Origin: an uncultured Thermoplasmata archaeon
GTDB taxonomy: Archaea > Thermoplasmatota > Thermoplasmata > UBA10834
DNA length: 64,000 bases
Assembly: GCA_963719945.1 (NCBI GenBank)
Contig: CAVRDX010000004.1
Location: forward strand, 259,744-323,743
Direction of reading: 5' to 3'
Part shown: positions 3,180 through 60,915 of the stretch, in pieces
Position numbering within the stretch: the first letter of the stretch is position 1
Layout: every line of letters begins with the position of its first letter
Translations under genes and position numbers: made by a program
Notes under the pieces: generated by a model
The model's database searches: none
What the model was told of the DNA's origin: nothing
Seen by the model: only the letters and a program-made list of their open reading frames with translations

Positions 3180-3976
3180 AGACCTTGGCAGTCCGAGCGA
3201 TGACATTGGCAGTGCTGACCGTCATGGTCCTGGCACTGTGCGTGGTCGCAGTTGATCGCGCATCGACCAACGCGGCTGCATACTCCCCGATATCGGTCTC
3301 AGTCGAAGTGGCCACCGCGGCAGAGAAATCCGCCGTCATCCCGTGCACGATCACGATCGCAGGCGGGCCAGCATCAGATGCACCTGGCAATTACTCGTAC
3401 AAGGCGGAGATCATTGCCGACAACAAGACCGGCTCATCCGTCACTTCTAGCACGGGCACATCCTCATCTGGCAAGTTCAAACTGAACATCACCATGCCTG
3501 GATACGGTCCGCAGACAATCACGCTGAAGGTCAACGCGACCTCGAAGAACTCGGTCACTGGCGACAGCGTCAACAAGATAAGTGAAGTGACGATCAAGGT
3601 CGTCGATCCGATCATCCTGAGAGTCACCGTACACAACACGGGTGTGGTCGATGCCAAGAACGTCACCGCTAAGTTCTACGCTGACGGGATACTCCTGAAC
3701 ACGCAGATATTCAATGTCTCTGCCGGTTCGTCCAAGGTGCTCAAACAGAACTGGACCTGGGTCAATATCGCTGATGGCAAGCATGTCGTATCCGTGATAA
3801 TCGACGATCCGAACGGAATCGTCGAGTTCAGCGACGGGAACAATATCTATTCGATGACGATCTACATCGGAGAGCAGAGCAACCCGATCGGTGGTGTGCT
3901 GACGGTCGGCGTGATCATTATGTCCTTGTTATTGGGATTGACCATGATGACCAAGCCGTCCCGCAGGAAGAAGTGA
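3176..3976 (+). CDS. Membrane-anchored surface protein with CARDB-like domain
   Basis: The ATG overlaps the upstream stop (ATGA at 3176-3179). There is an N-terminal signal/TM segment (LAVLTVMVLALCVVAV) and a CARDB-like segment (VHNTGVVDAKNVTAKFYADG...GKHVVSVIIDDPN). The C-terminus has a TM helix plus an SRRKK tail. Confidence 0.8.
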   Translation: MKTLAVRAMTLAVLTVMVLALCVVAVDRASTNAAAYSPISVSVEVATAAEKSAVIPCTITIAGGPASDAPGNYSYKAEIIADNKTGSSVTSSTGTSSSGKFKLNITMPGYGPQTITLKVNATSKNSVTGDSVNKISEVTIKVVDPIILRVTVHNTGVVDAKNVTAKFYADGILLNTQIFNVSAGSSKVLKQNWTWVNIADGKHVVSVIIDDPNGIVEFSDGNNIYSMTIYIGEQSNPIGGVLTVGVIIMSLLLGLTMMTKPSRRKK

Positions 3977-4020
3977 TGGCGAGCGAGACTCGGGCCGGCA
4001 TGATTGCCTATCTGGGATAG

Positions 4021-4029
4021 ATATTATAT
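4021..4029 (+). promoter_or_regulatory. TATA-box candidate upstream of thioredoxin
   Basis: ATATTATAT lies in the short intergenic gap, about 20-35 nt upstream of the candidate starts (TTG 4042 / GTG 4060). Confidence 0.35.
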
Positions 4030-4041
4030 CGCAGAAGCTCT

Positions 4042-4392
4042 TTGTGGCCAGTCAAGGATGTGAGGCTCCTGTCAGAAGATATCGTACATCTTACAGATGC
4101 GAATTTCGAGACCGTCGTGAAATCCTCAGAAAAGCTGATAATCGACTGTTGGGCGCCATGGTGCGGTCCTTGCAGGATGCTCGCACCGACGTTCGAAGCG
4201 CTCGCGAAGGATTACAAAGGCAAGGTCACCTTCGCCAAGCTCGACACAGACGAAGCCCCCAAGACTGCGATGTCGATGGGCATCAACAGCATACCGACCT
4301 TGATATTCTTCAAGGGCGGGAACCAGGTCGAGAGGATGACCGGTGCTCATCCGAGGGCGAACATCGAGAACACGATGAAGAAGCACTTCTGA
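4042..4392 (+). CDS. trxA: Thioredoxin
   Basis: WCGPC active site (DCWAPWCGPCRML) and thioredoxin-fold length (about 110 aa). The start is ambiguous: TTG 4042 or in-frame GTG 4060. Confidence 0.9.
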   Translation: MWPVKDVRLLSEDIVHLTDANFETVVKSSEKLIIDCWAPWCGPCRMLAPTFEALAKDYKGKVTFAKLDTDEAPKTAMSMGINSIPTLIFFKGGNQVERMTGAHPRANIENTMKKHF

Positions 4393-11408: not shown

Positions 11409-11998
11409 CCGAGCGGACTTCCCATCCGATCGTAAGGGTTCTCCACCATGGATGGATCATCAGGGATGGTCCTAGAGTCGTGGATGCCTCTTCATCCGTC
11501 ACCCTCATCGAGGAGGATGACCGCTGTTTCCTGGTCGATACGGGAGCGTCCACGGACTCGCGCGCGCTCATACGCGCGCTTTTAGAGAACGGCCTTTGCC
11601 CTGAGGATATAAACGATGTGGTGAACACTCATCTGCACACCGACCATTGTGGCTGCAACGACCTGTTCACCAACGCCCGGTTCCATGCGCACGAATCCGA
11701 GTCTCCTCCTATGGGAACCATTCGATTGACCGGGGATGTCGATCTCTCCCCCCATATCCGCGTGGTCCATACACCGGGTCATACGAGGGGGTGCGTGTCC
11801 GTCTTCGTGGAATCGGATACAAGGTATGCGATATGCGGAGACGCCCTTCCCACGGAGGCCAATTATCTGTCATGGGGGCCTCCAGGGATACATTTCGACC
11901 GCTCCCTCGCCTTGGCGAGCATGGGGCTCATCGTCGGCTGGGCCAAAACCGTGGTCCCGGGTCACGACAAGCCCTTTAGAGTCATGGGAAAGAAGTAA
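11405..11998 (+). CDS. MBL-fold metallo-hydrolase
   Basis: HxHxDH motif (THLHTDHCG) and a later TPGHT. ATGA start/stop overlap with the rhomboid gene. Confidence 0.85.
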   Translation: MTERTSHPIVRVLHHGWIIRDGPRVVDASSSVTLIEEDDRCFLVDTGASTDSRALIRALLENGLCPEDINDVVNTHLHTDHCGCNDLFTNARFHAHESESPPMGTIRLTGDVDLSPHIRVVHTPGHTRGCVSVFVESDTRYAICGDALPTEANYLSWGPPGIHFDRSLALASMGLIVGWAKTVVPGHDKPFRVMGKK

Positions 11999-42998: not shown

Positions 42999-43352
42999 CC
43001 GTTTCCTTCTGCCGTCGTCTCGATCGATTCTGACTCCGGTCCTTTCGAGCGGACGGGTCGATTGTATGCGGGACATTCCTCGCGAATCTTGAGTGCAGAA
43101 CCGTCGATCAACGATTTTGCCGCCTTATATCTGGCGCTCGACAATATTCGATTAAATGTCGGTTGTGACACGTCCATCTTCTCTGCGGATTGACCTTGTG
43201 AAAATCCTTCCAGATCCGACAATCTGAGTGCCTCTAGTTCATCCAAGTTCCATCTCTATGCTTGATAGTTCGTTCAAGGGAGTCCCTTGTGGTTTGAATA
43301 TCTTGTAATTGGGGTCCAGGCAGACCTTTCTGCATCTCTTTGGTCTAGGCAC
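42995..43352 (-). pseudogene. DUF134 (UPF0251) DNA-binding protein, reading frame broken by one extra nucleotide near 43243
   Basis: From the GTG at 43352 one frame gives MPRPKRCRKVCLDPNYKIFKPQGTPLNELSSIEMELG-stop. The +1 frame continues LDELEALRLSDLEGFSQGQSAEKMDVSQPTFNRILSSARYKAAKSLIDGSALKI. Together these form a canonical DUF134. Confidence 0.8.
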
Positions 43353-43354
43353 GG

Positions 43355-43384
43355 TTATGAATAATAATTCATAACTACTTTAAT
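43355..43384 (-). promoter_or_regulatory. Promoter/operator candidate of the cluster: TATA-like ATTAAAG plus a 20-bp palindrome
   Basis: TTATGAAT-AATA-ATTCATAA (43355-43374) ends 3 nt upstream of the GTG at 43352. A TATA-like element (plus strand CTTTAAT, 43378-43384) lies about 29 nt upstream of the start. Confidence 0.45.
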
Positions 43385-43771
43385 CTTGTCCATGAATAAC
43401 CTCGAGGTCGAGCAGTCATACCGAACCTCAGGCTAGGCATCTGCGTCGATCATCACGAACGTGTCCCGATGGAATTGAAAATCATCGTCGATTATTATGC
43501 ATCATTTATATAGTCAAATGATGACCTCAGATGCTTTGATTCCTGATGCGTGTTTTATGAGTGAGGCGAAACCATTAACACCCGTAAACCTCCATATCTA
43601 TTCCTAGGACTCTTGGCATTCGCTGAGAGGGTAGGTGGTTTGTTTCATGGAGCGACCAGTAGATCGGTCCACCGGTGCCTCTGCATCCAGAGGCCGGGGA
43701 ACCCATTGAGCTGACAGGCTACCGACTGTTGACCATCTCCGTCCGGTTCAGAGATGGTGCATGGAGGTGAG

Positions 43772-44230
43772 ATGGTGGATAGACAGAATATTGGAGACCC
43801 GATCAAAATATTGTTGGTGGAGGACAATCCAGGGGATGTTCGACTCACCGTAGAACTCTTCAAGGAATGCAAGATAAGAAACGACATGTTTGTCGTCAAC
43901 GACGGCATAGAAGCAATGGAATACCTGAGACACGCGGGGAAGTACGCCGATTCGAAACATCCGGACTTGATACTTCTGGACCTCAACCTTCCACGTAAGG
44001 ATGGACGCGAGGTTCTAAAAGAGATCAAGACCGATGAGAAACTGAAGCGGATCCCCGTTGTCATCCTGACCACGTCCAGGGCAGAGGCGGACATAATCAG
44101 GACCTACGATTCATACGCAAATTGCTATGTCACGAAACCTGTGAACCTCGACGAGTTCATGAAAGTCGTTCAATCTATCGAGTCATTCTGGCTTTCTATA
44201 GTGAAGCTGCCTCCTGATGGCACGAGGTGA
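43772..44230 (+). CDS. Stand-alone response regulator receiver (CheY-like)
   Basis: [10 protein letters not shown], phospho-acceptor context [10 protein letters not shown], and TKP. The ATG at 43772 is preceded by GGAGGTGA; an alternative ATG is at 43754. Confidence 0.85.
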
Positions 44231-44240
44231 ACCTTAGGGT

Positions 44241-46095
44241 ATGTTGAGCGTACTGCTTATAGAAGACAACCAGGGCGATGTCCGCTTGATTCGGGAAATG
44301 ATCAGGGAGAGAGAGACCGTCTCTCTATTCGCCCTCGAATACGTATCGACATTAGAGGACGGACTGGAGGCCATCGACAATGGACACTTCGATATCATCC
44401 TACTCGACTTGGGATTGCCAGACAGCCAGGGATTGAATACCCTGAGGACGTTGCGGTCCAAAGCCCCGAAGTCGCCTATTGTCATCATCACCGGACTTGC
44501 GGATGAAGTCACTGGGATATCTTCCTTGGAAATAGGCGCAGATGATTTTCTGAATAAGAGGGAGCTGAACGCAAGCTATCTGACCCATGCGATATTGTAT
44601 GCGATTCAGAGAAAGGCCTTGACTGAGAAGTTGAAGCTGAGCGACGCATCGGTCGAATCTGCGAACAGCGGGCTTATTGTAGCTGGACCGAAGTGGGAGA
44701 TACAACATGCGAATTTGTCCGCTTCACAATACCTAGGCTACACCCAGACAGAGCTTCATAATCAGTTATTGACCAAGTTCTCGAAGGATGAATCTAAACT
44801 CGTTGCTGGGCTGAGATCCGTTGTGATGACTTCAAGCTGGAGCGATGAGATCGAGATGATTCGAAAGGATGGCGATCCGTTGCTGGCCGAAGTGTCAGCC
44901 ACCGCTGTCAAGGACGAATCTGGCAAAGTCACGTACATAATCGTCTCCTTCTCGGACATTTCTGCTCTGAGGGCTGCGGAGCATGAGCTTCAAGCCACAG
45001 AGAAGAAGTATCAGCACCTATTCACTATTGCAATGGAAGGATTCTGGGTGATTGATCCTTCTGCCAAGACTATCCTAGCTAATCCCAGGATGGCTGAGAT
45101 GCTCGGATACACTTCTGAGGAAATGGCTGGCAGAAGCCTCTTCGAGTTCATGGATGGCGAGAGCAAGGAGCTCATCAATATGCTCCTGCGGCCGCGGAAG
45201 TCTGGCATGTCTGAGAAACACGAAATCACTTTCGTGAAGAAGGACGGATCCGCGCTGTATGCCCTTCTGCACGCCACGCCGATCATGGATCCGGATGGTT
45301 CGTATTCTGGAGCACTTGCGTGCGTCGCAGACATATCTGATCGCAAGCGATATGAGATTGAGCTTAAGGAACGAACCGAAGAGGCCGAGGCGCAGCGGCA
45401 GCGGGCTCGCACATATTTCGATTTGCTGGCACACGACATTGCAAACCTGATCTCGCCTATTCAGCTATATTGCGATCTCACCCGCCTTGAGAAGAATCAT
45501 TCCTCGGAGACTCTGCTTCGGGCTAAGCGTTTGTCAGACCAATCGAAAAGAGCATCATCATTGATCATCAACCTCAGAATGCTGGAGGAGCTTGAGCGAG
45601 TCGGCCCAGGGAACGTCGAATCGATCGACCTCATTGAAGTAATTGCGGATGTGAACGAGAAGGCAAGGTCGGAGTATTGGTCGAAGAGCGTCAGTCTGAA
45701 GATCGTTGGTCACAAAGGGGAAAGCGTCCATGTTAAAGGTGGCACATGGACGAAGCATGTCATATCCGAGATTATCAACAATTCGGTCAAGCACTCCGAT
45801 AGCAACGCTGTCAATATCCGCATCAGCATTTCAGAGGTTGACTGTGGGTCCGGAATTGAAGGTTGGCAGATTGATTTCAGTGACGATGGCCCTGGCATTC
45901 CAAACGATATGAAGGATCTTCTCTTCTCTACGTTTCGACCCAATGAGGCGTTTCAAGCGAGGAGTCGCTACGAACATGTCTTTCTGTTCCAGTTTCGTCA
46001 AGCATTTTGGAGGCGAGATAATAATCGGCGACCGAATTGAATCCCACCCTGAGAAAGGTGCCAAGATCACATTGAGATTGCCAAAAGGTGAGTGA
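44241..46095 (+). pseudogene. Hybrid sensor kinase (REC, 2x PAS, HisKA-like, HATPase_c) with a +1 frame break in the ATPase domain
   Basis: REC (LLIEDNQGD, DIILLDLGLPD), two PAS-like blocks, an H-box (LAHDIANLISPI) and an N-box (IINNSVKHS). The annotated tail after about 45910-45963 is nonsense. The +1 frame gives RFDPMRRFKRGVATNMSFCSSFVKHFGGEIIIGDRIESHPEKGAKITLRLPKGE, with its stop at 46093-46095. Confidence 0.8.
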
Positions 46096-46534
46096 CTTGA
46101 AAGCAGGAATATTCGTTGTCGAAGATGAGGCAGCCTTCTTCGAGATATACAATGCGGTATTTTCGTTGCTTGGGCTCGAATTGGTCGGTTGGGCGTACAG
46201 CGGCGAGGAGGGCATTGACAAGTTCAAGCAACTGGATGCCTGTCCCGCGCTGGTCATAATGGATCACAGGCTTCCTGGGAAGAATGGCATAGAGACGATG
46301 CTCGAGATGTCTCGCATATGGCCTGATGTCAAGACGTTGTTTGTGAGCGCGGACGGATCGGTTAGGGGAGATGCGCTTTGCCATGGTGCGCTTGACTTCA
46401 TTCAGAAACCGTTCGAGTTGCGTGATTTCATGGTAGCGATCAAAAAGAGCATACCGGGGTTCTCCACCAAGATTGACGGTGAGAAGGCCAACGTTCGGAA
46501 GTTGAAGTCAGACCATGTCATTGAGTCAACCTGA
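46088..46534 (+). CDS. Stand-alone response regulator receiver
   Basis: IFVVEDEAAF and ALVIMDHRLPGKNG. The GTG start overlaps the reconstructed kinase stop by 8 nt. Confidence 0.85.
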   Translation: MSDLKAGIFVVEDEAAFFEIYNAVFSLLGLELVGWAYSGEEGIDKFKQLDACPALVIMDHRLPGKNGIETMLEMSRIWPDVKTLFVSADGSVRGDALCHGALDFIQKPFELRDFMVAIKKSIPGFSTKIDGEKANVRKLKSDHVIEST

Positions 46535-46586
46535 GGACCATTATCATTTGGATGGTGACACTCTGATCGACGGATTATTTCCAGGG

Positions 46587-48570
46587 TCATGCAATTCCTG
46601 TCGATCCCTCTATTCCATCCGGTATGCTGAAAATAAACCTTGCTCCTTTTCCGGGCTCAGATTCTAACCAGATCTTGCCGCCATGCCGCTCGACTATCTT
46701 CTTGCATATCGCGAGTCCGATGCCTGTCCCGGAATATTTACGACCTGCGTGCAATCGCTGGAATATGATGAATATCCGTTCCGAATATTGCGCTTCAATT
46801 CCTATCCCATTGTCCTGGACTGAGAATACCCATTCGCCAATCCCTCGTTCTGCAGAGATGTGGATTCGGGGGGTGTCATCCCCTCGGAATTTCATTGCAT
46901 TGCTGAGCAGATTCTGGAGCAACTGCACGAGCTGACCTGGATCGGCTACAACAATCGGAAGCGGGCCAGTAGTGATGATGGCCCCGTTGTCTTCTATCGC
47001 CATCTTCAAATTGAGCATTGATTCCTTGAGGACATTATTGAAATCGATCTTGGAGAACTGCTTTCCTCGCGTTCCAACCCTCGAGAATGCAAGCAGATCA
47101 TTTATCATTCCTTGAAGCCGGTTTGCTCCATCAACAGCATATCCGATGAATTCATCCGCATCGTCATCCAGCTTCCCTTCGTATCGTCGAGACAGGAGTT
47201 CCAGATAGCTGGCGATCATGCGAAGCGGTTCCTGCAAATCATGAGATGCGATATATGCGAATTGCTGGAGCTCGTCATTGGACCTCTTCAACTCTACATT
47301 GGCCAAGTCTAGTTCCACGGTCCTCTCCTGTATCTTCTTCTCCATGTCGTCCCGATACTCCTTGAGGCTCGCGGTCATCTCGTTGAATGTGGATGCGAGC
47401 TCACCGATCTCGTCTCTGGAACTGTATGTCGACCCTCCTATCGAGATTCCCTCCAGAAACGTCTCGAGCTGCTCCCGTGAACAGTCTGATAGGTCTTATG
47501 ACGGATCGCATCGAGAAATATGCTACGACCCCTCCTAATGCCAATAGCACCGCTGTTATCTGTATTGCGACATTGCGCAGCTCGTGTGCGGGAGCGAGCA
47601 CTTCGTTGAGGTTGTAGCCGACGAGGATGATCCATCCGAATCCACCATAATTCAGATATCCTGGCGAAGTGGCATAGGAATAAAGCACATCGCATCCTCC
47701 TTCAGTCGTGACGAATGATCCAGTCTCGCCATCCAATTGTACAAAGTAACTCTTATCCGAGATGTTTTCCAAGGTGGCATATGCATCCGAAGAGTACAAT
47801 AGTCTACCATCTGGAGTGACCGCCTTGATCACTCTGCTGGCATATGGTGACGGCGTCAGTTCTATCTCGGTTTCCCTGACAATGCCAATCAGGTTCACGA
47901 TGCCCTTCATGACGCCGACCATGGTTCCGCTACTATCTTCTATTCTCACACATACGCTGACTCCGTATGTGCGAGAGCAATCATCGTAGCCCATGTCGCT
48001 GATGTAACTCCCGTTCTCCACAGTAGCGTGCCACCATTCATCATCCTGCAGATACTCGGTCACTCTAGAAGACATAGCAATAGTCGCTCCATACATGTTG
48101 GTGATGAGGACATTATTGTAGACATCGTATCCTCTCTCCACGAGGTTTTTATCAACCAACCGTTCCTTGATTATTTTGGAAAGGTTATTGTTCTCGATTG
48201 ATTGAATGAGCTCTGAAGTCTCATCGAACGGCACGGAGTGCCACTCAGAATCGATTTCTGCGATGTATGCTTCGAGATCCGGTAACTCACCGAAATCAAT
48301 GTTCGATTGTGACACAGCATCGACGAGTTCCGAGTCTTGGGACAGGAGGTCGATGGCATAATGTTTCAATAATATGCCTCTATCCAGGCTGAACGAGGAT
48401 TTCCACGCGACAGCAATCGTGCCCTCCGCAGTTGTGTTCTTCAGGGTTTCGCTGTTCTGTATAAGAACCAACCATGTGAGTCCGCTCATTAAGACAAGTA
48501 CAGCTATGAATCCGACACCCAACTTGAATGTCACACCGGATCCGAACTGGAGTTTGGTATCGCTGGTCAT
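46587..48570 (-). pseudogene. Membrane sensor histidine kinase (TM, extracytoplasmic Cache-like domain, TM, HAMP, HisKA, HATPase_c) split by a +1 frame break inside HAMP
   Basis: ORF 47401..48570 ends RPIRLFTGAARDVSGGNLDRRVDIQFQRRDR-stop. The frame of ORF 46587..47378 is open upstream and reads SSRDEIGELASTFNEMTASLKEY, then SHDLQEPLR (H-box), and GTGIGLAICKKIVERHGG. Confidence 0.8.
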
Positions 48571-49823
48571 TGATACACCAACTCTTCATTGATTACCTTT
48601 GCTGGGAAGAGGGGGATTGCGAAGTTGTGGTCACCAGGAGACACGCATATATTTCCAAGGACCCCGTTGTAGACGAAACCTTTCAACAGCAGGTTGCGCA
48701 CGTTCTCCCTCGACACCTCTTGGTCGATAAGGAGGCTGGATAGGAATTTGATTGCATCATATCCAGATGCACCTTGATGCGTTATCGAACGGTTATACAA
48801 GGCCTGGAAGCTGTTCTCGAGCCGGTCAGAGTACGAATAGGCTGGCCGGTATATGTTCGGCGCTGAAACATAAGCCCCGTTCGCGACCATTAGTTCTCTG
48901 ACGGACGGAGTGGCTGCTCCGCTCCCGAGGAAGATGTGTCCCGCGTAGTCGGAATCTCTTAGCTCCTGGAGTATACCTTCATAGTAGCTAGTCAATCCGA
49001 CCGCGAAGATCGCGTCATTCTCGGAAAGGTTCTGTACCTGCAATGAGAAATCATCCGCCCATGGCTCAAATCCTTCGTACTCGAACTGAATTCCTCTCGA
49101 CTCGATTTCGGGTAGGAATGCGTTGAGAACCGAGTTGCCATACTCATCGTTGATATAGATGAGTCCCAGCTTCCCGATTTCAAGGGAATCCATCTTGATC
49201 AGGGCTGGTCGGACTTCCTCCTGCGCACCGAAGTAGTATCGGAAGACCCAATCCCTTCCGGCTGTCACGGTGTCAGATGAAGTGACAACCGCGACAAGAG
49301 GCGTTTCATTCTCTTCCGCGAGCGGCGCGAGTGCAATGGAGATTGAGCTCACTGCCGAGATGTACATGAGGGGATGGTACTCGTTCTCGATATCTGCATA
49401 GATTTCGACTGCCTTCGATGAGTTGGACTCGCAATCCCTTATGATTAGCTGAATTTCCCTTCCGTTCAGATGGTTTCTTGTATTGATTTCGTCAACTGCG
49501 ATGAGCAACGCATCCCTGACGTCTATTGTGGATGCAGCTCCTGCGCCAGTAAGCGAGAGTATGACGCCTATCCTGATAGGTTCCTTATTCCCATCAACAA
49601 AATATTCCACGGAGAAGAACGCCGTGGCTGAGAGGATTATGATTATGAACACTGCTAATAATCGATAGTATGTGCGGCCATTCGCATTCTTTTGCTTGCT
49701 CCGCAACCTTCTCTGCCTAGTTTTCTCTACTGGATCTGTAATGCTTTCCACCATTCCAGATAGCGTGCGTCGCGCTGCTAATCCGACTGATTGGTCGGAT
49801 CTCATCGAACCCAGCCCCCCCAT
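48567..49823 (-). CDS. Membrane-anchored type-1 periplasmic-binding-protein-like (Leu/Ile/Val-binding family) protein
   Basis: N-terminal TM helix (LLAVFIIIILSATAFF), then an LIVBP-like start (IRIGVILSLTGAGAASTIDVRDALLIAVDEIN). Its stop overlaps the kinase start (ATGA at 48567-48570). Confidence 0.78.
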   Translation of the reverse strand: MGGLGSMRSDQSVGLAARRTLSGMVESITDPVEKTRQRRLRSKQKNANGRTYYRLLAVFIIIILSATAFFSVEYFVDGNKEPIRIGVILSLTGAGAASTIDVRDALLIAVDEINTRNHLNGREIQLIIRDCESNSSKAVEIYADIENEYHPLMYISAVSSISIALAPLAEENETPLVAVVTSSDTVTAGRDWVFRYYFGAQEEVRPALIKMDSLEIGKLGLIYINDEYGNSVLNAFLPEIESRGIQFEYEGFEPWADDFSLQVQNLSENDAIFAVGLTSYYEGILQELRDSDYAGHIFLGSGAATPSVRELMVANGAYVSAPNIYRPAYSYSDRLENSFQALYNRSITHQGASGYDAIKFLSSLLIDQEVSRENVRNLLLKGFVYNGVLGNICVSPGDHNFAIPLFPAKVINEELVYQ

Positions 49824-49947
49824 CTATCGACAAGAGGCACAATAATGATATCGGTGAGCTGTGCGTCTTTGGATATCATATCCACTCACCCGCCCGCCCT
49901 GGCTGACTGTAGGGTGTGTATTTGTTCAGCCGCAGAAACAATGGATA

Positions 49948-50020
49948 TGGGCCCAACCGGATTTGAACCGGTGATCTACGCCGTGTAAGGGCGTTGTCAT
50001 AACCGCTAGACCATGGGCCC
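49948..50020 (-). tRNA. tRNA-Val (anticodon UAC)
   Basis: Minus-strand fold. Acceptor GGGCCCA/TGGGCCC. Anticodon stem ACGCC/GGCGT with loop CTTACAC. T arm ACCGG-TTCAAAT-CCGGT, discriminator A. Confidence 0.9.
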
Positions 50021-52506: not shown

Positions 52507-52797
52507 GGTGTTCCTGTTAACGATTTCCAAAGGAAATACCTTTTCGAGTGACCATTATCGTGCATTCGACTGATTTAGCGACCGAGAAATAGGATGGCTC
52601 GGCACCTAAAAATAGGGACATCGCAGATTCTCCCTCGTCTGCGATTCTAGCGAACTTCGATTACTCCAGGGGACATATACATGGATCACGGTGCCAGGGA
52701 CAACAGTCTTAACAGTGGACAGGGATTCTACGGAAGCAACTACAAGGGAACACAACATAAGGTGATCAAATCCAAGACGGTCGATCATCAGAGGCCA

Positions 52798-54339
52798 ATG
52801 AACCGCAGATTTGTACAGAAACGATTGGTTCTGGCGTTCGTATCATTTGGCATCGTCGCATCAATGGCACTTCTTGCTTTGAATGGCCTTCACCTTCCAT
52901 CATTCGGCAAGGCACCTTCTGTGCCTGACTCTGACGAACCGGTATATTCTTACGACTGGCCAGTCGACTACCTCAACGACACTGTGATACCTATTGGCAC
53001 TATCCATTCTGATTTCTCGACCTATGATGAGACTGATGTGGCTGTTCAGGGAAATGTGACGGCTGCCCCTGACGAATATGACAATGGTTGCTTTTTCATA
53101 CAGGATTCCACAGGCGGACTCATGGTACGGACCGCAGGTTCGGGATTCACGTTCAACCTCAACAGAGGGGATTATGTTAGATTGTATGGGACGGTGGCGC
53201 AGACTGTCCAGGGCATGCACGTGATAGAGGATGCCCAGAGCTATTGGCTGATGGGTACCGGTAACACCGTCTATGTACAGCACATGTACAACTCATCGCT
53301 CGTGGCTGCATCGGATCAGGGGATGCTTGTCAAGATGAACGGATACCTGACCAACTTCAGCTACGACAACACTTCCCATACCGTTCCAGATTGGGAGAAG
53401 GTTTCGTGCACATCCACCCTGTGGATGTATAGTCGCAACTTCACAGTGCAGGCGACAAACTTCACACTCTCTGATTACGATGGATTTGCGATGGTGACCG
53501 GAGTGATGTTCTATGTTGATGGTTCATACGCACTGAATCCGCGGTCATCCTCGGACATAGATCATGGTGACGGGCCTTATTGGACACCAAACGTTGATGG
53601 CTATCTTGACGATTGGACCTCGTCCGAGATGGCCGTCGACGATTCTGACAGCGATGCCAATATCGTTGGCTACGAAATGAAGTGTTTGTACACAACGTGG
53701 GACTCAGAATTCCTTCACATAGGTGTAGAGTATGCCATCGGAGAATACGGTTCGGCAATAGTGTATATTGACGCAATCCCTGGGCAAGGGGCTAGTAATG
53801 TGTCAGCCTTGACAGATATGTGGGGATGGGATCCGTTTGCTTGCTCCAGGCACCTGGAGTTCCGAGACGGTTTCGAAGCGGATTATATGCTTCTCAGATA
53901 CGAGGACGGATATCCTGTCCTCCTCAGGTTGATCTCGAACGGATTGTATGAGGACGCGACATTGGGGATGGCTGCCTTGGCCACCGGAACCGTGGATGGT
54001 GGGAGTGCATTCATCGAAGCAGCAATCCCCTGGACTACGATATTTGGAATGGATCCTGGTGAAGTCCCACTCGGGTCAACCATCCGCATGGTTGCAGTGG
54101 TCACTGGTGGATCGGATACCAATGTATTCGACTCCGCGCCAGATTCCGTGCTAATACCAACATGGTACGACTGGACCAAGCTGTACTACTTCTACGACTT
54201 CTGCATAGATTGCGATCTTGACGGTTACCCTGATGATTACAGCTCGGGATTCGCGATACCCGAATTTTCCATCCTGATAGTCGTCCCGATGATGGTCGCG
54301 ATGGTGTTGGTGGTTCGCGCTAGAAGGAAGAAGACCTAG
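52798..54339 (+). CDS. Membrane-anchored extracellular protein of unknown function
   Basis: N-terminal TM (LVLAFVSFGIVASMALLAL), an acidic Asp/Tyr/Trp-rich ectodomain, and a C-terminal TM plus RARRKKT tail. The start is trimmed from 52681. Confidence 0.65.
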   Translation: MNRRFVQKRLVLAFVSFGIVASMALLALNGLHLPSFGKAPSVPDSDEPVYSYDWPVDYLNDTVIPIGTIHSDFSTYDETDVAVQGNVTAAPDEYDNGCFFIQDSTGGLMVRTAGSGFTFNLNRGDYVRLYGTVAQTVQGMHVIEDAQSYWLMGTGNTVYVQHMYNSSLVAASDQGMLVKMNGYLTNFSYDNTSHTVPDWEKVSCTSTLWMYSRNFTVQATNFTLSDYDGFAMVTGVMFYVDGSYALNPRSSSDIDHGDGPYWTPNVDGYLDDWTSSEMAVDDSDSDANIVGYEMKCLYTTWDSEFLHIGVEYAIGEYGSAIVYIDAIPGQGASNVSALTDMWGWDPFACSRHLEFRDGFEADYMLLRYEDGYPVLLRLISNGLYEDATLGMAALATGTVDGGSAFIEAAIPWTTIFGMDPGEVPLGSTIRMVAVVTGGSDTNVFDSAPDSVLIPTWYDWTKLYYFYDFCIDCDLDGYPDDYSSGFAIPEFSILIVVPMMVAMVLVVRARRKKT

Positions 54340-56351: not shown

Positions 56352-56428
56352 GGGCCCGTGGGGTAGTTAGGATATCCTTCTGGCCTTCGAAGCCGGTGAC
56401 GTGGGTTCAAATCCCACCGGGCCCGCCA
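56352..56428 (+). tRNA. tRNA-Arg (anticodon UCG), CCA encoded
   Basis: Acceptor GGGCCCG/CGGGCCC. Anticodon stem CTGGC/GCCGG with loop CTTCGAA (TCG at 56387-56389). T arm GTGGG-TTCAAAT-CCCAC, discriminator G, then CCA. Confidence 0.9.
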
Positions 56429-57243
56429 GACTTCCCAAATACTTATTGTGGGAAGGGTCATATAGGTGGAATTGGGTCGTAGCGTGGGGACATGGCATCG
56501 AAAGCGCGACTATTTCAAGTAAATCGACGAATGCTGTACGGAATTCTGGCTCTCGCAGTTGCCGTTACTGTGATTTTGGCTGGTATCTTGTACTATCTGG
56601 ATGCCCACCGATACCCGTCCGAAGAAACTCCTCTCGTGTTGCGCTCCTGGGGAATCAGCTGGGTCATGGAGCAGGAAGATCTCGATCATCTATTTCTAGT
56701 GTCTCCGTTTGAGAACATTAGTTTGTTGTGGACCGATTTCGGTGGCGTCTATTACGGGAGCCCACCTCTGAATTCGACATTCCCTCGGGTGAGCATATCT
56801 CAATTCGAGCTGCCGGACAACGTGACAACATTGTTCGAGACTTACATCGTCGGTTGGCATTCCGACAACACTGTGAATGGAGTCCGCATCATTGGCGCGT
56901 ACGGAGTCTTCATAACGGACGAGAATGAGAACGGCTTGTTTGACTATGGGGACGCAATCTCTCTCTTCTATGGAGTCTATGAGAATGGCACACTGACTCA
57001 ACAGGGATTTCAAAGCGCTACTGAATATGGCATAGGACTATACTCTTCAGAAAATCTCTTGCATTCATCCATACAGTTCAAGTACGCAATCCATCACGAA
57101 AGGCTTTACGCCTGGGCATCAAATTAGCCTGAAGATTGGATGGAAAGAAAGAGGGTTTTGTGCCCGAGTGCATCTTCCCCGTGATTGAATCTCTGAGTTA
57201 GACTACTGGTCTAGCGGCATGGCGATACCCACCGGGCCCGCCA
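56429..57243 (+). mobile_element. Putative integrated-element remnant, cassette 1 (bounded by copies of the tRNA-Arg 3' end; no integrase)
   Basis: Flanked by the 16-nt direct repeat CCCACCGGGCCCGCCA at 56413-56428 and 57228-57243. It carries a single membrane-protein ORF. Confidence 0.35.
56492..57127 (+). CDS. N-terminally anchored membrane protein, unknown function
   Basis: TM helix (LYGILALAVAVTVILAGILYYL). I recognise no family. It lies inside cassette 1. Confidence 0.6.
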   Translation: MASKARLFQVNRRMLYGILALAVAVTVILAGILYYLDAHRYPSEETPLVLRSWGISWVMEQEDLDHLFLVSPFENISLLWTDFGGVYYGSPPLNSTFPRVSISQFELPDNVTTLFETYIVGWHSDNTVNGVRIIGAYGVFITDENENGLFDYGDAISLFYGVYENGTLTQQGFQSATEYGIGLYSSENLLHSSIQFKYAIHHERLYAWASN

Positions 57244-57245
57244 CC
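57164..57245 (+). repeat. Direct repeat copy B (about 80-nt imperfect repeat ending in the tRNA-Arg 3'-end core)
   Basis: The core CCCACCGGGCCCGCCA is at 57228-57243. A 27-nt stretch (ATGGCGATACCCACCGGGCCCGCCACC) is identical to copy C. GACTACTGG lies 9 nt upstream in both copies, and weaker similarity extends back to about 57164. Confidence 0.8.
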
Positions 57246-58905
57246 ATCCATAGCCAGTAATCAAGTCTCGCTTCTCAATCAGGGTCTTTAGTGTGCCGGG
57301 GTTCCTACCATTTACCGAAGGTTCGTGGGCCAAGGATTCGGTTTGAATCACCGGTCCTCATGAAGTCCCGTGACATCCATCCATTCCTGGTGTTCTCTCC
57401 TCTTCCTACGTCTATGCATTATTAGGCCCACGACCGCGACAGCAACGAATCCGACTAGAGCCGTCCGCAAGCCAGAATCGTACAGCGCGTACTCAAATCG
57501 ATCTGGGTCGAGCTGGCTGGTCACATAGACAGTCACAGAAGTCTCGCCACTATCTGGAATGCGCACCTTTTGATAATAGACCACGTGTACATCCCGGCTC
57601 TCATCTGTCGCGATCGCGATGCTCTCCTCCCAAGACCATCCTTGACAATCGTCTAGTATCTGCACCTTCCATGCTCCATCTGCGTTCGTACAGTATCTCA
57701 CGGTGTGGTTGGCAGTCTCTCCATCATAGTCCTCGACAAAATACCCCATGTGGATATCTCCGTCTGAGTCGACTGTGATCGCCACACCTGTACCATATCC
57801 TTTCTCATTTCCCCCATATGCCACATCTTCGCTTTCCCAATCGCCATCAGCATTGGTGAAGTAGCATAAGCTGTAATTGTCTCCCTTGCTTCTGTAAGCG
57901 CTGATGTACGCATTACCTGAGGCGTCATGACAGAGCGATTTCTCGCCAGGGTATCCGCCCAGATTTGGAATAACGGTGGCGTCAGTCAACTCGCCGTTCG
58001 ATATGACACTGTAATTGAGTTGCCATGAGATGATAGTGTCCCATCCTAACAGGTCGTAGGTCGTATAGATCATGCCTATTGATCCGTCCGGGCGACTGTC
58101 GACATCATCGATTGAGAATACTCTGTACGGAATATATGACTCCTTTAGAATCGTGCTGTCCCAGCCTTGCGGAGTGCGTATCATATCGATGATGGATGAA
58201 TTCATGTTCACGGTTGACTGCCCGGTATCTCTTGAGTAAATCAGGTGGACATTGTCCTGAGCATCGATTGCAACCTTGGCAGACGAAGGGTACCCCGTTA
58301 TGTTGATCATCTCGCTTTCCCATTCACCGCCAGCGTTTGTGGCAAATAAGATGTGCTGACCATATAAGTTCATGACCGGTTTGTACAACGATGTGCACAC
58401 GTATACTCTATCTTGGGAATCCAGTGCTATCGAAGCACCCTCATGGTCCCAGGATAGATATGACAAGCAGGTGAGGTCCCATTCGCCTCCTACTCTCTGT
58501 CCGTAAAGGAGTGCATAATATGGACCGTATACTCCGATGTATGCGAGCTGAAGCTCTCCTTCAGAATCCCACGCCAACTGGTAGAACCCGTCTCCGGCAG
58601 ATGTGTAACCGAGTTCTTGAGTTGGCCACCGAGAACTTGTCATGTACTCCCAGGCAAAGCTCGATGTGAAAACCAGGGCGGCTACGACAACTATGCCAAC
58701 AGTTGCTTTCCTAGTTGTGTCCATTTCCACTCCACCGTGCAAATCCCAAGATGCTTTTTCAGTATTAAGAATCCACGTGTGCTGCAGAGTCGATATGCAC
58801 GAAGAGAACTGTAAGTGGTTTGTGTCGAATGCATCATACCCATTGATTGAACCTCCGTGTCTGACTACTGGCACGGAATGATGGCGATACCCACCGGGCC
58901 CGCCA
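57244..58905 (+). mobile_element. Putative integrated-element remnant, cassette 2 (no integrase)
   Basis: Flanked by core copies at 57228-57243 and 58890-58905. It carries a single minus-strand surface-protein gene. Confidence 0.35.
57348..58724 (-). CDS. Bitopic surface protein with repeated beta-propeller-like TNA(G/D)G(E/D/A)W motifs
   Basis: N-terminal TM (VGIVVVAALVF). Repeats include FATNAGGEWESE, FTNADGDWESE and CTNADGAWKVQ. C-terminal TM plus HRRRKRRE. The ATG at 58724 has TTCTTAATAC about 35 nt upstream; the ORF-track extension to 58874 runs into repeat C. Confidence 0.7.
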   Translation of the reverse strand: MDTTRKATVGIVVVAALVFTSSFAWEYMTSSRWPTQELGYTSAGDGFYQLAWDSEGELQLAYIGVYGPYYALLYGQRVGGEWDLTCLSYLSWDHEGASIALDSQDRVYVCTSLYKPVMNLYGQHILFATNAGGEWESEMINITGYPSSAKVAIDAQDNVHLIYSRDTGQSTVNMNSSIIDMIRTPQGWDSTILKESYIPYRVFSIDDVDSRPDGSIGMIYTTYDLLGWDTIISWQLNYSVISNGELTDATVIPNLGGYPGEKSLCHDASGNAYISAYRSKGDNYSLCYFTNADGDWESEDVAYGGNEKGYGTGVAITVDSDGDIHMGYFVEDYDGETANHTVRYCTNADGAWKVQILDDCQGWSWEESIAIATDESRDVHVVYYQKVRIPDSGETSVTVYVTSQLDPDRFEYALYDSGLRTALVGFVAVAVVGLIMHRRRKRREHQEWMDVTGLHEDR

Positions 58906-58907
58906 CC
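58816..58907 (+). repeat. Direct repeat copy C
   Basis: The core is at 58890-58905 and the 27-nt identity with copy B is at 58881-58907. GACTACTGG is at 58863-58871. Confidence 0.8.
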
Positions 58908-59025
58908 CTTTCATCATGGGTTGAGCTAGTGAATCTCTATGTGGGCGAACACAATCAAAGACAGCTATTAATTGCTCCACATGGTTCTGCAGTACGATGA
59001 TTGGTCGTGATGCGGAGAACGATGT

Positions 59026-60027
59026 ATGATGTCTAGAAGAACTCATGCGGGTTGGCAAGTACGCCGAGCATCTTCTGACGATGCAGGGCCCATAGTGGCG
59101 CTAATCAACGCCCACGCGCGGCACTACTATGGCGAGGACCGTATTGGATTGGATGAAGTGAGGACGTGGTTCACCTCCCCGGGCGTAGGACAGGACGACA
59201 CGCAATCTTGGTGGTGGGATGACGGCACGCTTGTGGCTTATGCACAGGTCTACCGACCTGGATTTCCGGGTATGTGGGACGTACTACACGATGTTACGGT
59301 TCACCCAGATGAGGCTGGTAACGACGAGCTTTGGAACGATGCCTTTGCATGGTGTGACCAGTATCAATGGAAGCTGCGACATCAGTCTAGCACATCACAT
59401 ACGAGCATGGTCTGCGGGGCTCGCATCCATGAGAACGACGTAGACAAGCGTAGACAATACGAATCACGGGACTTCAAACATATTCGAAACGAGACTCTGA
59501 TGCGGATTAGATTTCCAGAGGTCGTGTCGAAGGACGTGGCAAATCCAAGCGGGGTCACGATACGCGAACTCGACCTGGAGACTGATATGGATGCCTATGC
59601 GATGGCTTATGGAGAGGCGTTTCGCGATCACTGGGGCCACGTCGACATTCCGCAAGACGAGCAGGTGCGCAGAAAGAAGGCGGAGTTCAAGTCCTGGGGT
59701 CAGATGTACGTGCCAGGCCTGTGGTTCGTCGCTCTTGACGGTGACACAATCGTGGGGAGCGTCGGCAGCTTCCTGAACTTCGGCAATGTCCCAGGACGCT
59801 GCTATCTCTATCATGTATTCGTGCGTCGCGCCTGGCGTAACCGCAGGATAGCTACGACGCTTCTCCGCACCACATTCCATGAGCTGCAGCAACGCGGTGG
59901 GAGGATCGTTGAGCTGCATGTCGATTCTGACAACATGACGTACGGCCTTGAGCTCTATCGCGGTCTTGGTATGAAACCGGTTTGGCACCAACGTTTGTAC
60001 GAGAAGGCGGTCCCGATATCCTGCTAA
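59026..60027 (+). CDS. Two-domain GNAT-family N-acetyltransferase (MshD-like architecture)
   Basis: 333 aa. The second domain has the acetyl-CoA motif VRRAWRNRRIATTLL, and the first half is GNAT-like. Confidence 0.75.
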   Translation: MMSRRTHAGWQVRRASSDDAGPIVALINAHARHYYGEDRIGLDEVRTWFTSPGVGQDDTQSWWWDDGTLVAYAQVYRPGFPGMWDVLHDVTVHPDEAGNDELWNDAFAWCDQYQWKLRHQSSTSHTSMVCGARIHENDVDKRRQYESRDFKHIRNETLMRIRFPEVVSKDVANPSGVTIRELDLETDMDAYAMAYGEAFRDHWGHVDIPQDEQVRRKKAEFKSWGQMYVPGLWFVALDGDTIVGSVGSFLNFGNVPGRCYLYHVFVRRAWRNRRIATTLLRTTFHELQQRGGRIVELHVDSDNMTYGLELYRGLGMKPVWHQRLYEKAVPISC

Positions 60028-60156
60028 CAGCCATCGTCTTCATGCTATTCTCATCGTAGCTCGCCCTGGTATGATAGAGCCTCCCTGAAATATCTCCGCT
60101 GATAACCGTTGCATCGATAATCCATATCTTTTCAGTCACTGCCAGTATCTGAATGA

Positions 60157-60915
60157 CTAGGCGAGTTCCTTCTCGCGGAACAGGTACGCGCCGAGGACAA
60201 GGAATATGATCGTCAGAACGATTATCACGAGGACTGAGTCGAAGAAGCCAGTGGCCTGTTCGTAATGGCTGATGCTTCCATAGTCGACCCATTCGAAGCC
60301 TATGCTTCTCAGATAATGTCTGATGGACGCTTTCTGTATCACGCCAGGGAGCGATCCTATGAATGCTTCCCATATGAATGCGTAGAAAAGGCCGAAGAAC
60401 ACCGGCTTCTTGAACAGAACGCCCATGGATAGGAACAGTGCAGAATACACAACCGAACCAATGATGACAAGGCCTGTGAATGCAAGGTATATGCTCAGGC
60501 TATCTGAGTCGATCCCTTTCTGAGAGAAGAACGCAAGGAACCCTGCGGTGTTGATGATGATCATGGATATTGCGACTGCTATCACCAATGGCACGTAATA
60601 GCCGGCATACGAGTATGCTCGGTCGAGAGGCGCAGTGGCCACGTGCGTGATGCTCTTGTCATCTATCTCGTCACGGATCAGTGACGAGCCGTAGATCATA
60701 GCCATCACAGGCATGAAGAACAGAAGTATGAGTGTGTCGAGGAGATTGACCCCCTCGTCCAGTGGCTCAACATCCTGTGTGCCCGCATATCCCATCACGG
60801 CTGCGACGAACACCGCGACCAGCGCGGAAATCACTGCTTTTCGGCTGAACAGCAGCTTCTTGATGGAGTACCGTGTTATCGCGATTATCCCGGTGAATGC
60901 TCTGTCAAGATCCAT
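60157..60915 (-). CDS. ABC-2-like transporter permease
   Basis: 252 aa with about six TM helices. It starts 2 nt after the upstream ATPase stop. Confidence 0.7.
   Translation of the reverse strand: MDLDRAFTGIIAITRYSIKKLLFSRKAVISALVAVFVAAVMGYAGTQDVEPLDEGVNLLDTLILLFFMPVMAMIYGSSLIRDEIDDKSITHVATAPLDRAYSYAGYYVPLVIAVAISMIIINTAGFLAFFSQKGIDSDSLSIYLAFTGLVIIGSVVYSALFLSMGVLFKKPVFFGLFYAFIWEAFIGSLPGVIQKASIRHYLRSIGFEWVDYGSISHYEQATGFFDSVLVIIVLTIIFLVLGAYLFREKELA

Follow-up and report, generated by a model that had tools for sequence, protein, structure and literature searches.

An array of attachment-site scars behind tRNA-Arg(UCG) probably marks an integration hotspot of small integrative elements with a XerA-like tyrosine integrase in Thermoplasmata

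What places repeated copies of a tRNA 3' end behind the gene itself, each of them closing a short unit with a single gene? The question is raised by a 64,000-nt stretch of the genome of an uncultured Thermoplasmata archaeon (hereafter the window; position 1 is its first letter and features are given in window coordinates), in which the last 16 nt of tRNA-Arg(UCG) recur twice downstream of the gene. We sought the answer by comparing the locus with others from further genomes, metagenome-assembled genomes (MAGs) and metagenomes, which are labelled L001, L002 and so on. The extra tRNA-Arg 3' ends are attachment-site scars of a previously undescribed Thermoplasmata element family, and with good confidence we regard the locus as a tRNA integration hotspot built by Thermoplasmata-specific small integrative elements with a classical XerA-like tyrosine integrase.

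Four tRNA genes are encoded in the window. The integration target on the attL side, tRNA-Arg(UCG) (56352-56428, +), which both ARAGORN and the Rfam tRNA model call (Rfam 59 bits), ends in CCCACCGGGCCCGCCA (core copy 1, 56413-56428), and this 16-nt sequence is present on the plus strand exactly three times, at 56413, 57228 (to 57243) and 58890 (to 58905), with no fourth match in the window even when two mismatches were allowed. Only 0.04 matches are expected by chance, three matches were reached in 0 of 100 shuffles, and the 3' ends of the other three tRNA genes, which served as an internal control, are not repeated anywhere in the window. Copies 2 and 3 are alike beyond the core: they share a 27-nt identity (57219-57245 = 58881-58907) with GACTACTGG 9 nt upstream of it in both, and when gaps are allowed the two align with identity at 73/95 positions (77%, E 4e-17). 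The first-pass annotation of this DNA, made from the sequence alone, had reported both the exact repeats and the extended similarity, and both withstood these tests. In the sense of Islander, an island has at one end an intact tRNA gene, regenerated by element-borne sequence, and at the other a direct repeat formed by the displaced 3' fragment of the tRNA (PMC4383910), and both are present here (Rfam 59 bits; 57228 and 58890).

That these repeats are direct and close to the tRNA gene would also be accounted for by a local duplication, in which the copies are pseudogenes of the tRNA or stem from segmental duplication of its 3' region and no mobile element takes part. However, copies 2 and 3 hold only the last 16 nt of the tRNA, preceded by a non-tRNA block that is found in dozens of genomes and with other tRNAs; the DNA between the copies is unrelated cargo, and one left end is homologous to an integrase gene (see below). 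Neither copy scores as a tRNA in Rfam, even at E <= 5. The first-pass annotation had itself named pseudogenes from local duplication as the finding that would speak against integration; Rfam finds only the real tRNA, and RNAalifold on 48 copies of the preceding block yields no consensus structure (0.0 kcal/mol). We therefore consider a local duplication highly improbable. The terminal CCA (56426-56428) is encoded in the tRNA-Arg(UCG) genes of the window and of L007 and not in those of the syntenic loci L006 and L056; because the latter two lack it, the encoded CCA may be element-derived sequence standing in place of the original tRNA 3' end.

The blocks that precede the two downstream cores, right-end module 1 (57146-57243, +; P arm plus tRNA-like 3' end, core copy 2 at 57228-57243) and right-end module 2 (58809-58905, +; core copy 3 at 58890-58905, the last recognisable array junction), are members of a ~95-nt sequence family. 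Using nhmmer, module 1 was detected at E 5e-25 with a self-including profile and at 1.5e-12 with a 48-sequence profile, and module 2 at 2e-21 and 2.5e-13 (48-sequence profile). The first profile, built from six copies, identified independent modules in L010 and L011 (E 1e-9 to 1e-14). Scanning a degenerate right-end pattern taken from this profile over 185,579 species, one genome each, gave 32 loci, 29 of which come from 21 Thermoplasmata/Thermoplasmatota assemblies; the first profile confirmed 28 of these 29 and none of the three others, and L034 was detected only by the profile rebuilt from 48 copies. In total, about 60 module copies were found in 21 Thermoplasmata species genomes, where they form same-orientation arrays downstream of tRNA genes, as in L033, in which tRNA-Trp is followed by four modules.

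The last ~30 nt of the module mimic the T-arm and acceptor strand of tRNA-Arg(UCG), tRNA-Arg(CCU), tRNA-Trp or tRNA-Ala. This element-borne tRNA-like segment exceeds the exact repeat and is diverged (GGCGATA instead of GGGTTCAAAT), and its T-loop is degenerate in the right-end copies of the window. Junctions that mimic a different tRNA lie at ~11483-11550 (-) in L001, ~1067-1166 (-) in L002 and 737-831 (-) in L044. The arms carry the motifs GACATACTGGCTC and, at the left end, CATAGCCAGT, and they are very strongly conserved across integrase subfamilies. The left end is an imperfect inverted copy of right-end module positions ~18-80, which gives inverted ends of ~60 nt, and a member of the family reads in the order tRNA core, left end, cargo and ~95-nt right end closing in a copy of the tRNA 3' end.

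High conservation and an end resembling a T-arm and acceptor strand might point to a functional RNA or regulatory element, for instance a tRNA-like processing signal or terminator that is conserved behind genes and supplies a tRNA-like end for RNA processing. This is contradicted by the lack of a consensus structure in the 48 copies and of any Rfam match for the block, by cargo genes lying on either strand relative to the module, and by the degenerate T-loop of the window copies, so that we give the idea almost no credence. A coding role was also discarded, as the 95-nt block contains stop codons in every frame.

The modules delimit larger units that encode their own recombinase. Full elements measure 3.3-8 kb; a module-bounded 3.35-kb unit in L036 encodes a PF00589 integrase (E 1e-16), and such an integrase of ~334 aa occupies the tRNA-proximal end in L036, L044 (6.95 kb), L060, L069 and L094. 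In L044 the integrase abuts tRNA-Arg(CCU), and the 6.95 kb up to the right-end module are followed by two integrase-less units. The integrase family comprises 53 clusters (~334 aa) in Thermoplasmatota metagenomes. The best solved relatives of its profile are archaeal XerA structures (4a8e, 1.5e-22; 5hxy, 7e-15), and R133, H262 and Y272 are among the invariant residues of a 21-sequence alignment; with domain PF00589, the R..H..R..Y residues and similarity to XerA, the protein is predicted to be a XerA-like tyrosine recombinase. Of the 54 metagenomic loci recovered with the integrase profile, 27 have a convergent tRNA gene at a distance of <=10 nt from where the match stops, and in four more this distance is <100 nt, the adjoining tRNAs being Ala-UGC, Ala-CGC, Ala-GGC, Arg-UCG, Arg-CCU, Trp and Met. 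Its stop codon lies 5-10 nt from the tRNA, and the nearly invariant C-terminus ...PLIE..DYTGYA-stop is encoded by CATAGCCAGT, the very motif that follows the core at left ends.

Modules arrayed throughout the family and an integrase abutting the tRNA in intact members agree with the first-pass annotation, which had read the locus as the work of elements with related right ends that integrated site-specifically and in tandem at the 3' end of a tRNA gene, and had named the right-end sequence and an associated tyrosine recombinase as the things to look for; 29 loci in 21 assemblies and the tyrosine integrase are what such a search returned. Since the gene is unsplit on integration and the domain is PF00589 rather than PF16795, the integrase is of the classical and not of the suicidal archaeal type (criteria of PMC8371274). 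In suicidal integrases attP lies inside the integrase open reading frame (ORF), so that the gene is broken on integration into the parts int(N) and int(C), and PF16795 is diagnostic (PMC8371274). Unlike in this SSV1/pTN3/pT26-2 type, the stop codon precedes the core here and the gene is intact when integrated.

Besides the tyrosine integrase, the recognised autonomous elements often encode a small serine recombinase. This protein (Resolvase domain, 190-230 aa) is encoded directly upstream of the tyrosine integrase in several full elements, for example at 7182-7868 in L044, 7223-7789 in L062 and 4464-5066 in L078, and could serve in resolution, inversion or recombination directionality. The variable cargo of full elements includes MmeI-like restriction-modification, Schlafen/AlbA and radical-SAM genes and genes for zinc-ribbon membrane proteins. 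No match above 28% identity to the integrase was present in phage and plasmid collections; in IMG/VR, two DNA-pattern scans gave 0 matches and an integrase-profile scan gave only four distant ones (26-43% identity). A viral origin was set aside on these results.

Imperfectly inverted element ends and a direct repeat of ~16 nt at a tRNA 3' end can be described in another way, with the ~60-nt ends as terminal inverted repeats and the 16-nt core as a target-site duplication made by a transposase or casposase, the elements being casposon-derived or miniature inverted-repeat transposable elements. The ~16-nt direct repeat at the tRNA 3' end resembles that of family 2 casposons. Tandem casposon insertions have also been documented (PMC6563490). 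Yet the autonomous members encode a tyrosine integrase and not Cas1 or PolB, neither of which was found in the integrase-bearing elements whose ORFs were scanned, and the left 'terminal inverted repeat' is the integrase's own C-terminal coding sequence. A diverged tRNA-like segment that extends beyond the exact repeat fits attP/attB identity and not a fresh duplication, and the IMG/VR scans described above count against this explanation as well. The transposon idea was dropped once full elements bearing an integrase had been found, and we hold it to be most improbable.

With the family defined, the two units of the window can be read in its terms. Cassette 2 (57244-58905, unstranded, 1662 nt) is bounded by core copies 2 and 3. 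An integrase-3'-end DNA profile built from 9 loci outside the window (significance cut-off E <= 0.01) has a sole significant match in the window, at 57245-57317 (-) with E 9.8e-5. This segment, the left end or P' arm of cassette 2, lies directly right of core copy 2 and reads ...TLIEKRDLITGYG in frame, a ~70-nt remnant covering the last ~20 codons of an integrase gene, and it repeats the right-end module imperfectly in inverted orientation. The core plus integrase 3' end of L056 and L057 is 83% identical over 59 nt to window positions 57228-57284. Because 57245-57317 is homologous to the 3' end of an integrase gene, with this 83% identity in L056, cassette 2 is a member of the family that lost its integrase by internal deletion and kept both att arms. 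Sister integrase-less units hold integrase remnants of 16-134 codons, a variable length that bears the signature of decay through deletions.

The cargo gene of cassette 2 (57348-58724, -) encodes a 458-aa envelope-anchored beta-propeller-like protein with hydrophobic N- and C-terminal segments and weak BNR/beta-propeller Pfam matches. It has a dozen homologues of 40-64% identity, one of them from Candidatus Thermoplasmatota archaeon. In six of seven contexts the homologue's gene is convergent with a tRNA gene or a tRNA 3' end just downstream, and the tRNA varies: tRNA-Arg(UCG) in L006, tRNA-Arg(CCU) accompanied by a 3' fragment of a foreign tRNA in L001, tRNA-Trp in L002 and tRNA-Lys(CUU) in L003 and L004, the latter two tRNAs having introns. 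In L002 the propeller gene lies between two direct copies of 40 nt from the 3' end of tRNA-Trp (95% identical, 1699 nt apart), and in the seventh context, L005, the gene adjoins a tyrosine integrase of the family. The same L002 locus appears to carry at ~3550-4050 (-) a tRNA-Arg(UCU)-like gene with two apparent introns, noticed by reading and missed by ARAGORN; behind it come an L41e-like ORF (35 aa, highly basic) and tRNA-Trp, in this order. The intron of this tRNA-Trp (~100 nt) has C/D-box-like motifs, and the same intron is called in L028, L032, L033 and L037.

Cassette 1 (56429-57243, +, 815 nt) consists of cargo and right end only, with no left end or integrase remnant; no left-end or module match was found right of core copy 1, nor is there a left end after core copy 3 in the window. 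Its cargo gene (56492-57127, +) encodes a protein of 211 aa, which has a transmembrane helix at the N-terminus and an ectodomain rich in beta structure and matches no Pfam family. A fold search was abandoned, as the structure prediction was too poor (mean pLDDT 47.8). The protein has 16 homologues, the closest of them (91% identical) in L007, L008 and L009, and homologues in L010, L011 and L033 are also encoded directly upstream of a right-end module. Compared with L007, the dN/dS of the gene is 0.34, and its third-codon identity is 0.925 as against 0.71-0.87 for five backbone genes. These values hint that cassette 1 was recently exchanged and that its gene is under selection; because the divergence of the backbone is itself heterogeneous, the low divergence of the cassette counts only as a hint.

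The first-pass annotation had described each interval as holding one membrane or surface protein gene, which agrees with the hydrophobic and transmembrane segments of the two proteins, and it had proposed profile searches of both, which gave the weak propeller matches for the larger protein and no family for the smaller. It had also called the cassettes integrase-less and the sequence to the right of each core unrelated. The first statement is right in that a complete integrase was found neither in the array region nor in tests of 20 mid-size ORFs from the rest of the window, and it needs amending for the 3' remnant at 57245-57317 (-), which likewise gives the sequence right of copy 2 an identity. 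Its suggestion of eroded elements fits cassette 2 and its remnant. An integrase gene beside the tRNA end, a further Islander feature (PMC4383910), is represented in the window only by this ~70-nt remnant and is present in the relatives L036, L044, L056, L057, L060 and L069.

Do relatives of the locus vary at the core, as insertion would have it? L007, L008 and L009 follow the window collinearly over iorA/leuCD, the tRNA and cassette 1. They are 86-94% identical to it at the nucleotide level up to 57260, after which homology comes back only at 60161, and the cassette 1 unit is common to them at 94-97% identity up to the core. The segment identities between the window and L007-type loci are 0.89 for leuC, 0.905 for leuD, 0.94 for the cassette 1 ORF and 0.966 for the module, and identity falls to 0.55 in the 57 nt after core copy 2; the drop from 0.966 in the module to 0.55 after the core places the break at the core's 3' edge. 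L007 has cores at 1259, 2075 and 3018, and its second unit, a cassette of 943 nt with an ORF of 102 aa, differs from that of the window and again ends in the 95-nt block plus core. L007 and L008 thus carry another cassette in the slot of window cassette 2, and L009 also differs there. In L006, a more distant syntenic relative, the propeller gene lies directly behind tRNA-Arg(UCG) without cassette 1. L056, syntenic with the window over iorA, leuCD and tRNA-Arg(UCG) at 68-79% nucleotide identity, has an intact family integrase at this tRNA, and the same tRNA abuts an intact integrase in L057. The relatives therefore display presence/absence polymorphism with breakpoints at the att core, another mark of an island in the Islander sense (PMC4383910), and not the fixed, non-polymorphic repeats that the first-pass annotation had named as evidence against integration.

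The internal units of the family are mostly small: those bounded at both sides (n=29) have a median length of 1.43 kb (range 0.5-4.0 kb), many of them with a single gene, and a left-end or integrase remnant follows only 10 of 57 module junctions. Their cargo is diverse and includes Peptidase_C11, NosD/beta-helix, Kelch and Ig-like domains, ferredoxins, a methyltransferase, an ABC transporter and SPFH proteins. At least one unit without integrase has spread. A 905-nt Fer4 cassette with neither integrase nor left end occurs in three MAGs at 89-90% nucleotide identity (L032, 1937-2841; L028, 3098-4002; L033, 1086-1983), the cores exactly delimiting the homologous stretch; in the arrays it takes positions 1, 2 and 4. 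Third-codon identity is 0.86-0.91 for the Fer4 gene and 0.40-0.45 for the adjacent backbone gene (PAC2); the Fer4 gene being far more alike than PAC2, the unit must have spread long after its hosts diverged. Mobilisation of cassettes, the second option of the first-pass annotation, thereby gains indirect support for units of the cassette 1 type.

Such spread with exact core-to-core boundaries raises the further question of whether the arrays resemble integrons. The ~95-nt module plus core would then be a portable, self-sufficient attC-like site at which a trans-acting XerA-like integrase captures, excises and reshuffles single-gene cassettes in tRNA-anchored arrays, a selected way to vary envelope and secreted proteins, with cassettes exchanged between genomes and cassette 1 as a typical member. 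Integron cassettes (ORF plus attC) are alike in being small, mostly single-gene units with a conserved, imperfectly palindromic end site served by a tyrosine recombinase. The small, often one-gene internal units, the scarcity of left-end and integrase remnants, the integrase-less Fer4 cassette and the polymorphism between the window and L007 at an internal junction are all in keeping with this; both cargo families of the window recur in module-bounded units behind different tRNAs, and envelope or secreted proteins account for much of the cargo (Ig-like, NosD/beta-helix, Kelch, Peptidase_C11). Integrons differ, however, in that the Thermoplasmata arrays have no IntI, attI or Pc platform and are anchored on a tRNA gene: no resident integrase adjoins the array, and there is no common promoter. 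Integrase remnants of 16-134 codons mark many units as visibly, and simply, decayed autonomous elements, and the cargo includes housekeeping-like enzymes too. The junction folds as single-stranded DNA no better than shuffles (z -0.55), so that attC-like folding was rejected, and the module has no conserved fold. Finally, cis-mobilisation by accretion accounts for the same data without a new system. We consider such an integron-like system, and with it a self-sufficient attC-like end site, unlikely, though a good deal less so than the other alternatives; if it were true, archaea would have their own equivalent of the integron, anchored on tRNA genes and serving to diversify envelope and secreted proteins. 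The related proposal of the first-pass annotation, a dedicated att-site mechanism for swapping surface-protein genes, was not borne out.

The history of the locus is best read as that of a tRNA hotspot at which units accreted, decayed and were mobilised in cis or in trans, a reading built on the anatomy of the units, their family membership, the truncated integrase, the polymorphism at the core edge and the horizontal spread of an equivalent cassette. In the mechanism we propose, the integrase (Int) would bind the arms and recombine attP (right end, core, left end) with the tRNA 3' end or with any core of the array; as Int may use any core already present, units would accrete head to tail. Cassette 1 most likely came as the passenger of an integrase-bearing neighbour: the composite would excise via its outer att sites and integrate, and the driver would later leave through the internal core, a cis-mobilisation of the kind described for cis-mobilizable elements (CIMEs) and the simplest course to assume. 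It would yield a unit built like cassette 1, with cargo, right end and core behind the tRNA. The chemistry of recombination, the contact between Int and the arms and any current mobility are deduced here from sequence comparison.

Several observations weigh against this history. Between the window and L007 it is the tRNA-proximal unit that is common and the distal slot that differs, which reverses simple accretion with the newest unit next to the tRNA and requires recombination at internal cores or differential deletion. Some arrays (L001, L002, L044/L017) mix junctions that mimic different tRNAs, which strictly core-dependent integration does not predict. Neither a circular nor an empty-site junction was observed. 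A protein-level search for integrase fragments in the six-frame translation of the window found nothing, the DNA profile alone detecting the remnant of cassette 2. No family integrase was found in the 64-kb window, and 0 of the 53 integrase clusters map to a contig as long as the 399-kb source contig; present-day mobility of the two cassettes therefore has no identified driver.

How does the array compare with known systems? Among the closest are the CIMEs and the tandemly accreting ICESt1/ICESt3-type islands of Streptococcus (Pavlovic 2004, Bellanger 2011). The CIMEs, as far as the cited account covers them, have lost their integration genes and kept attL and attR, are found beside related elements in tandem arrays at a target gene's 3' end and can be co-excised and transferred with an integrase-bearing neighbour (PMC5704250). 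The units of the window are likewise att-bounded, without integration genes and in tandem at a target gene 3' end: both have cores at both ends and no recombinase, and cassette 2 also has a left end and a module. Descent by decay from an integrase-bearing family member is visible in cassette 2 (3' remnant, with sister remnants of 16-134 codons), while cassette 1 holds no integrase remnant. By structure, the window units qualify as CIME-like remnants. They differ from CIMEs in their archaeal host, in having no conjugation module and in their far smaller size (0.8-1.7 kb, one gene); many Thermoplasmata units, moreover, keep the right arm only, and their mobilisation is a deduction from sequence alone.

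The ssrA islands of Dehalococcoides form tandem arrays with a ~20-bp direct repeat of the gene 3' end and a conserved sequence upstream, and many of them are without an integration module and have been proposed to be cis-mobilizable (PMC3146451). Tandem arrays behind one small-RNA gene, 3'-end repeats and a conserved motif beside each repeat are shared with the present arrays. The Dehalococcoides islands, however, use a CcrB-like serine recombinase and a single tmRNA target and extend over tens of kb (PMC3146451), whereas the Thermoplasmata family has a XerA-like tyrosine integrase, many tRNA targets and units of about a kilobase. Prochlorococcus tycheposons, in the parts of their description drawn on here, carry cargo and a tyrosine recombinase and integrate at tRNA genes; each new integration moves the older elements farther out, and the islands hold fragmented integrases and partial tRNAs (bioRxiv 10.1101/2020.12.28.424599). 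They differ in being bacterial and in having unrelated integrases and replication or packaging modules, and those parts report neither a conserved ~95-nt end nor a prevalence of single-gene units (10.1101/2020.12.28.424599).

Classical pNOB8-type or 'type II' archaeal integrases are similar in that the gene stays intact on integration and the target is a tRNA, in att identities within the reported 8-60 bp range and in arrays formed by re-use of the same site (PMC8371274, PMC6563490). The published archaeal integrase groups (XerA, pNOB8, PYG1, SNJ2, SSV1, pTN3 and pT26-2) include none from Thermoplasmata elements (PMC8371274, Table 1). Compared with these, the family stands apart in that its nearest matches in phage and plasmid collections are <=28% identical, its stop codon abuts the core and its C-terminal codons double as an att arm.

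Beyond the last junction, a variable segment (58906-60160, +) that is absent from L007 carries a GNAT acetyltransferase gene (59026-60027). A homologue of this gene in L011 is followed by a right-end module, and no module remnant, even a degenerate one, was detectable after the GNAT gene of the window; we tentatively suggest that the segment may be an older cassette that lost its end. Inside the GNAT gene, a sub-threshold Rfam match to the C/D-box sRNA sR51 (59215-59293, +; 20.5 bits versus a gathering threshold of 38, E 0.67) is probably due to chance. Upstream of the array, between iorA and leuC, a gene for a 552-aa secreted or anchored protein (52681-54339, +) is only 70% identical to its counterpart in L008 at the nucleotide level (third-codon identity 0.50), with the flanking iorA, leuC and leuD at 89-92%; this points either to a hypervariable gene for a surface protein or to the replacement of an allele. 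A look-up of the exact LeuD sequence of the window gave no record, probably owing to a different choice of start codon. The region 43000-50000, beside tRNA-Val(UAC) (49948-50020, -), has a G+C content of 0.48-0.50 versus 0.53-0.58 elsewhere and holds signal-transduction genes (PAS/HK, Cache, PBP). A weak match resembling the right-end module follows tRNA-Val(UAC) in the syntenic locus L056 (E 1e-3), and none is detectable there in the window.

Tandem att-bounded islands with decayed members are well documented, and in this sense the array is known in kind. New are the element family itself, its conserved 95-nt end, the overlap of integrase C-terminal codons with one att arm, and the predominance of kilobase-sized, single-gene units that keep only the right end. 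The hypervariable locus beside leuCD in this uncultured Thermoplasmata lineage is thereby explained. The family can be recognised by the profile of its 95-nt end and by the integrase C-terminus ...DYTGYA in no fewer than 21 species genomes and in some 80 loci from metagenomes, and these signatures allow such islands to be delimited automatically in MAGs. A mechanistic question also becomes testable, namely whether half an att site, the right arm plus core, is enough for integrase-mediated capture. To our knowledge, no plasmids or viruses are known for these archaea. The elements suggest an active route of gene flow among them, in which integrase-less, kilobase-sized single-gene units make up most of the arrays and at least one unit has been transferred between genomes with synonymous-site saturation in their backbones.

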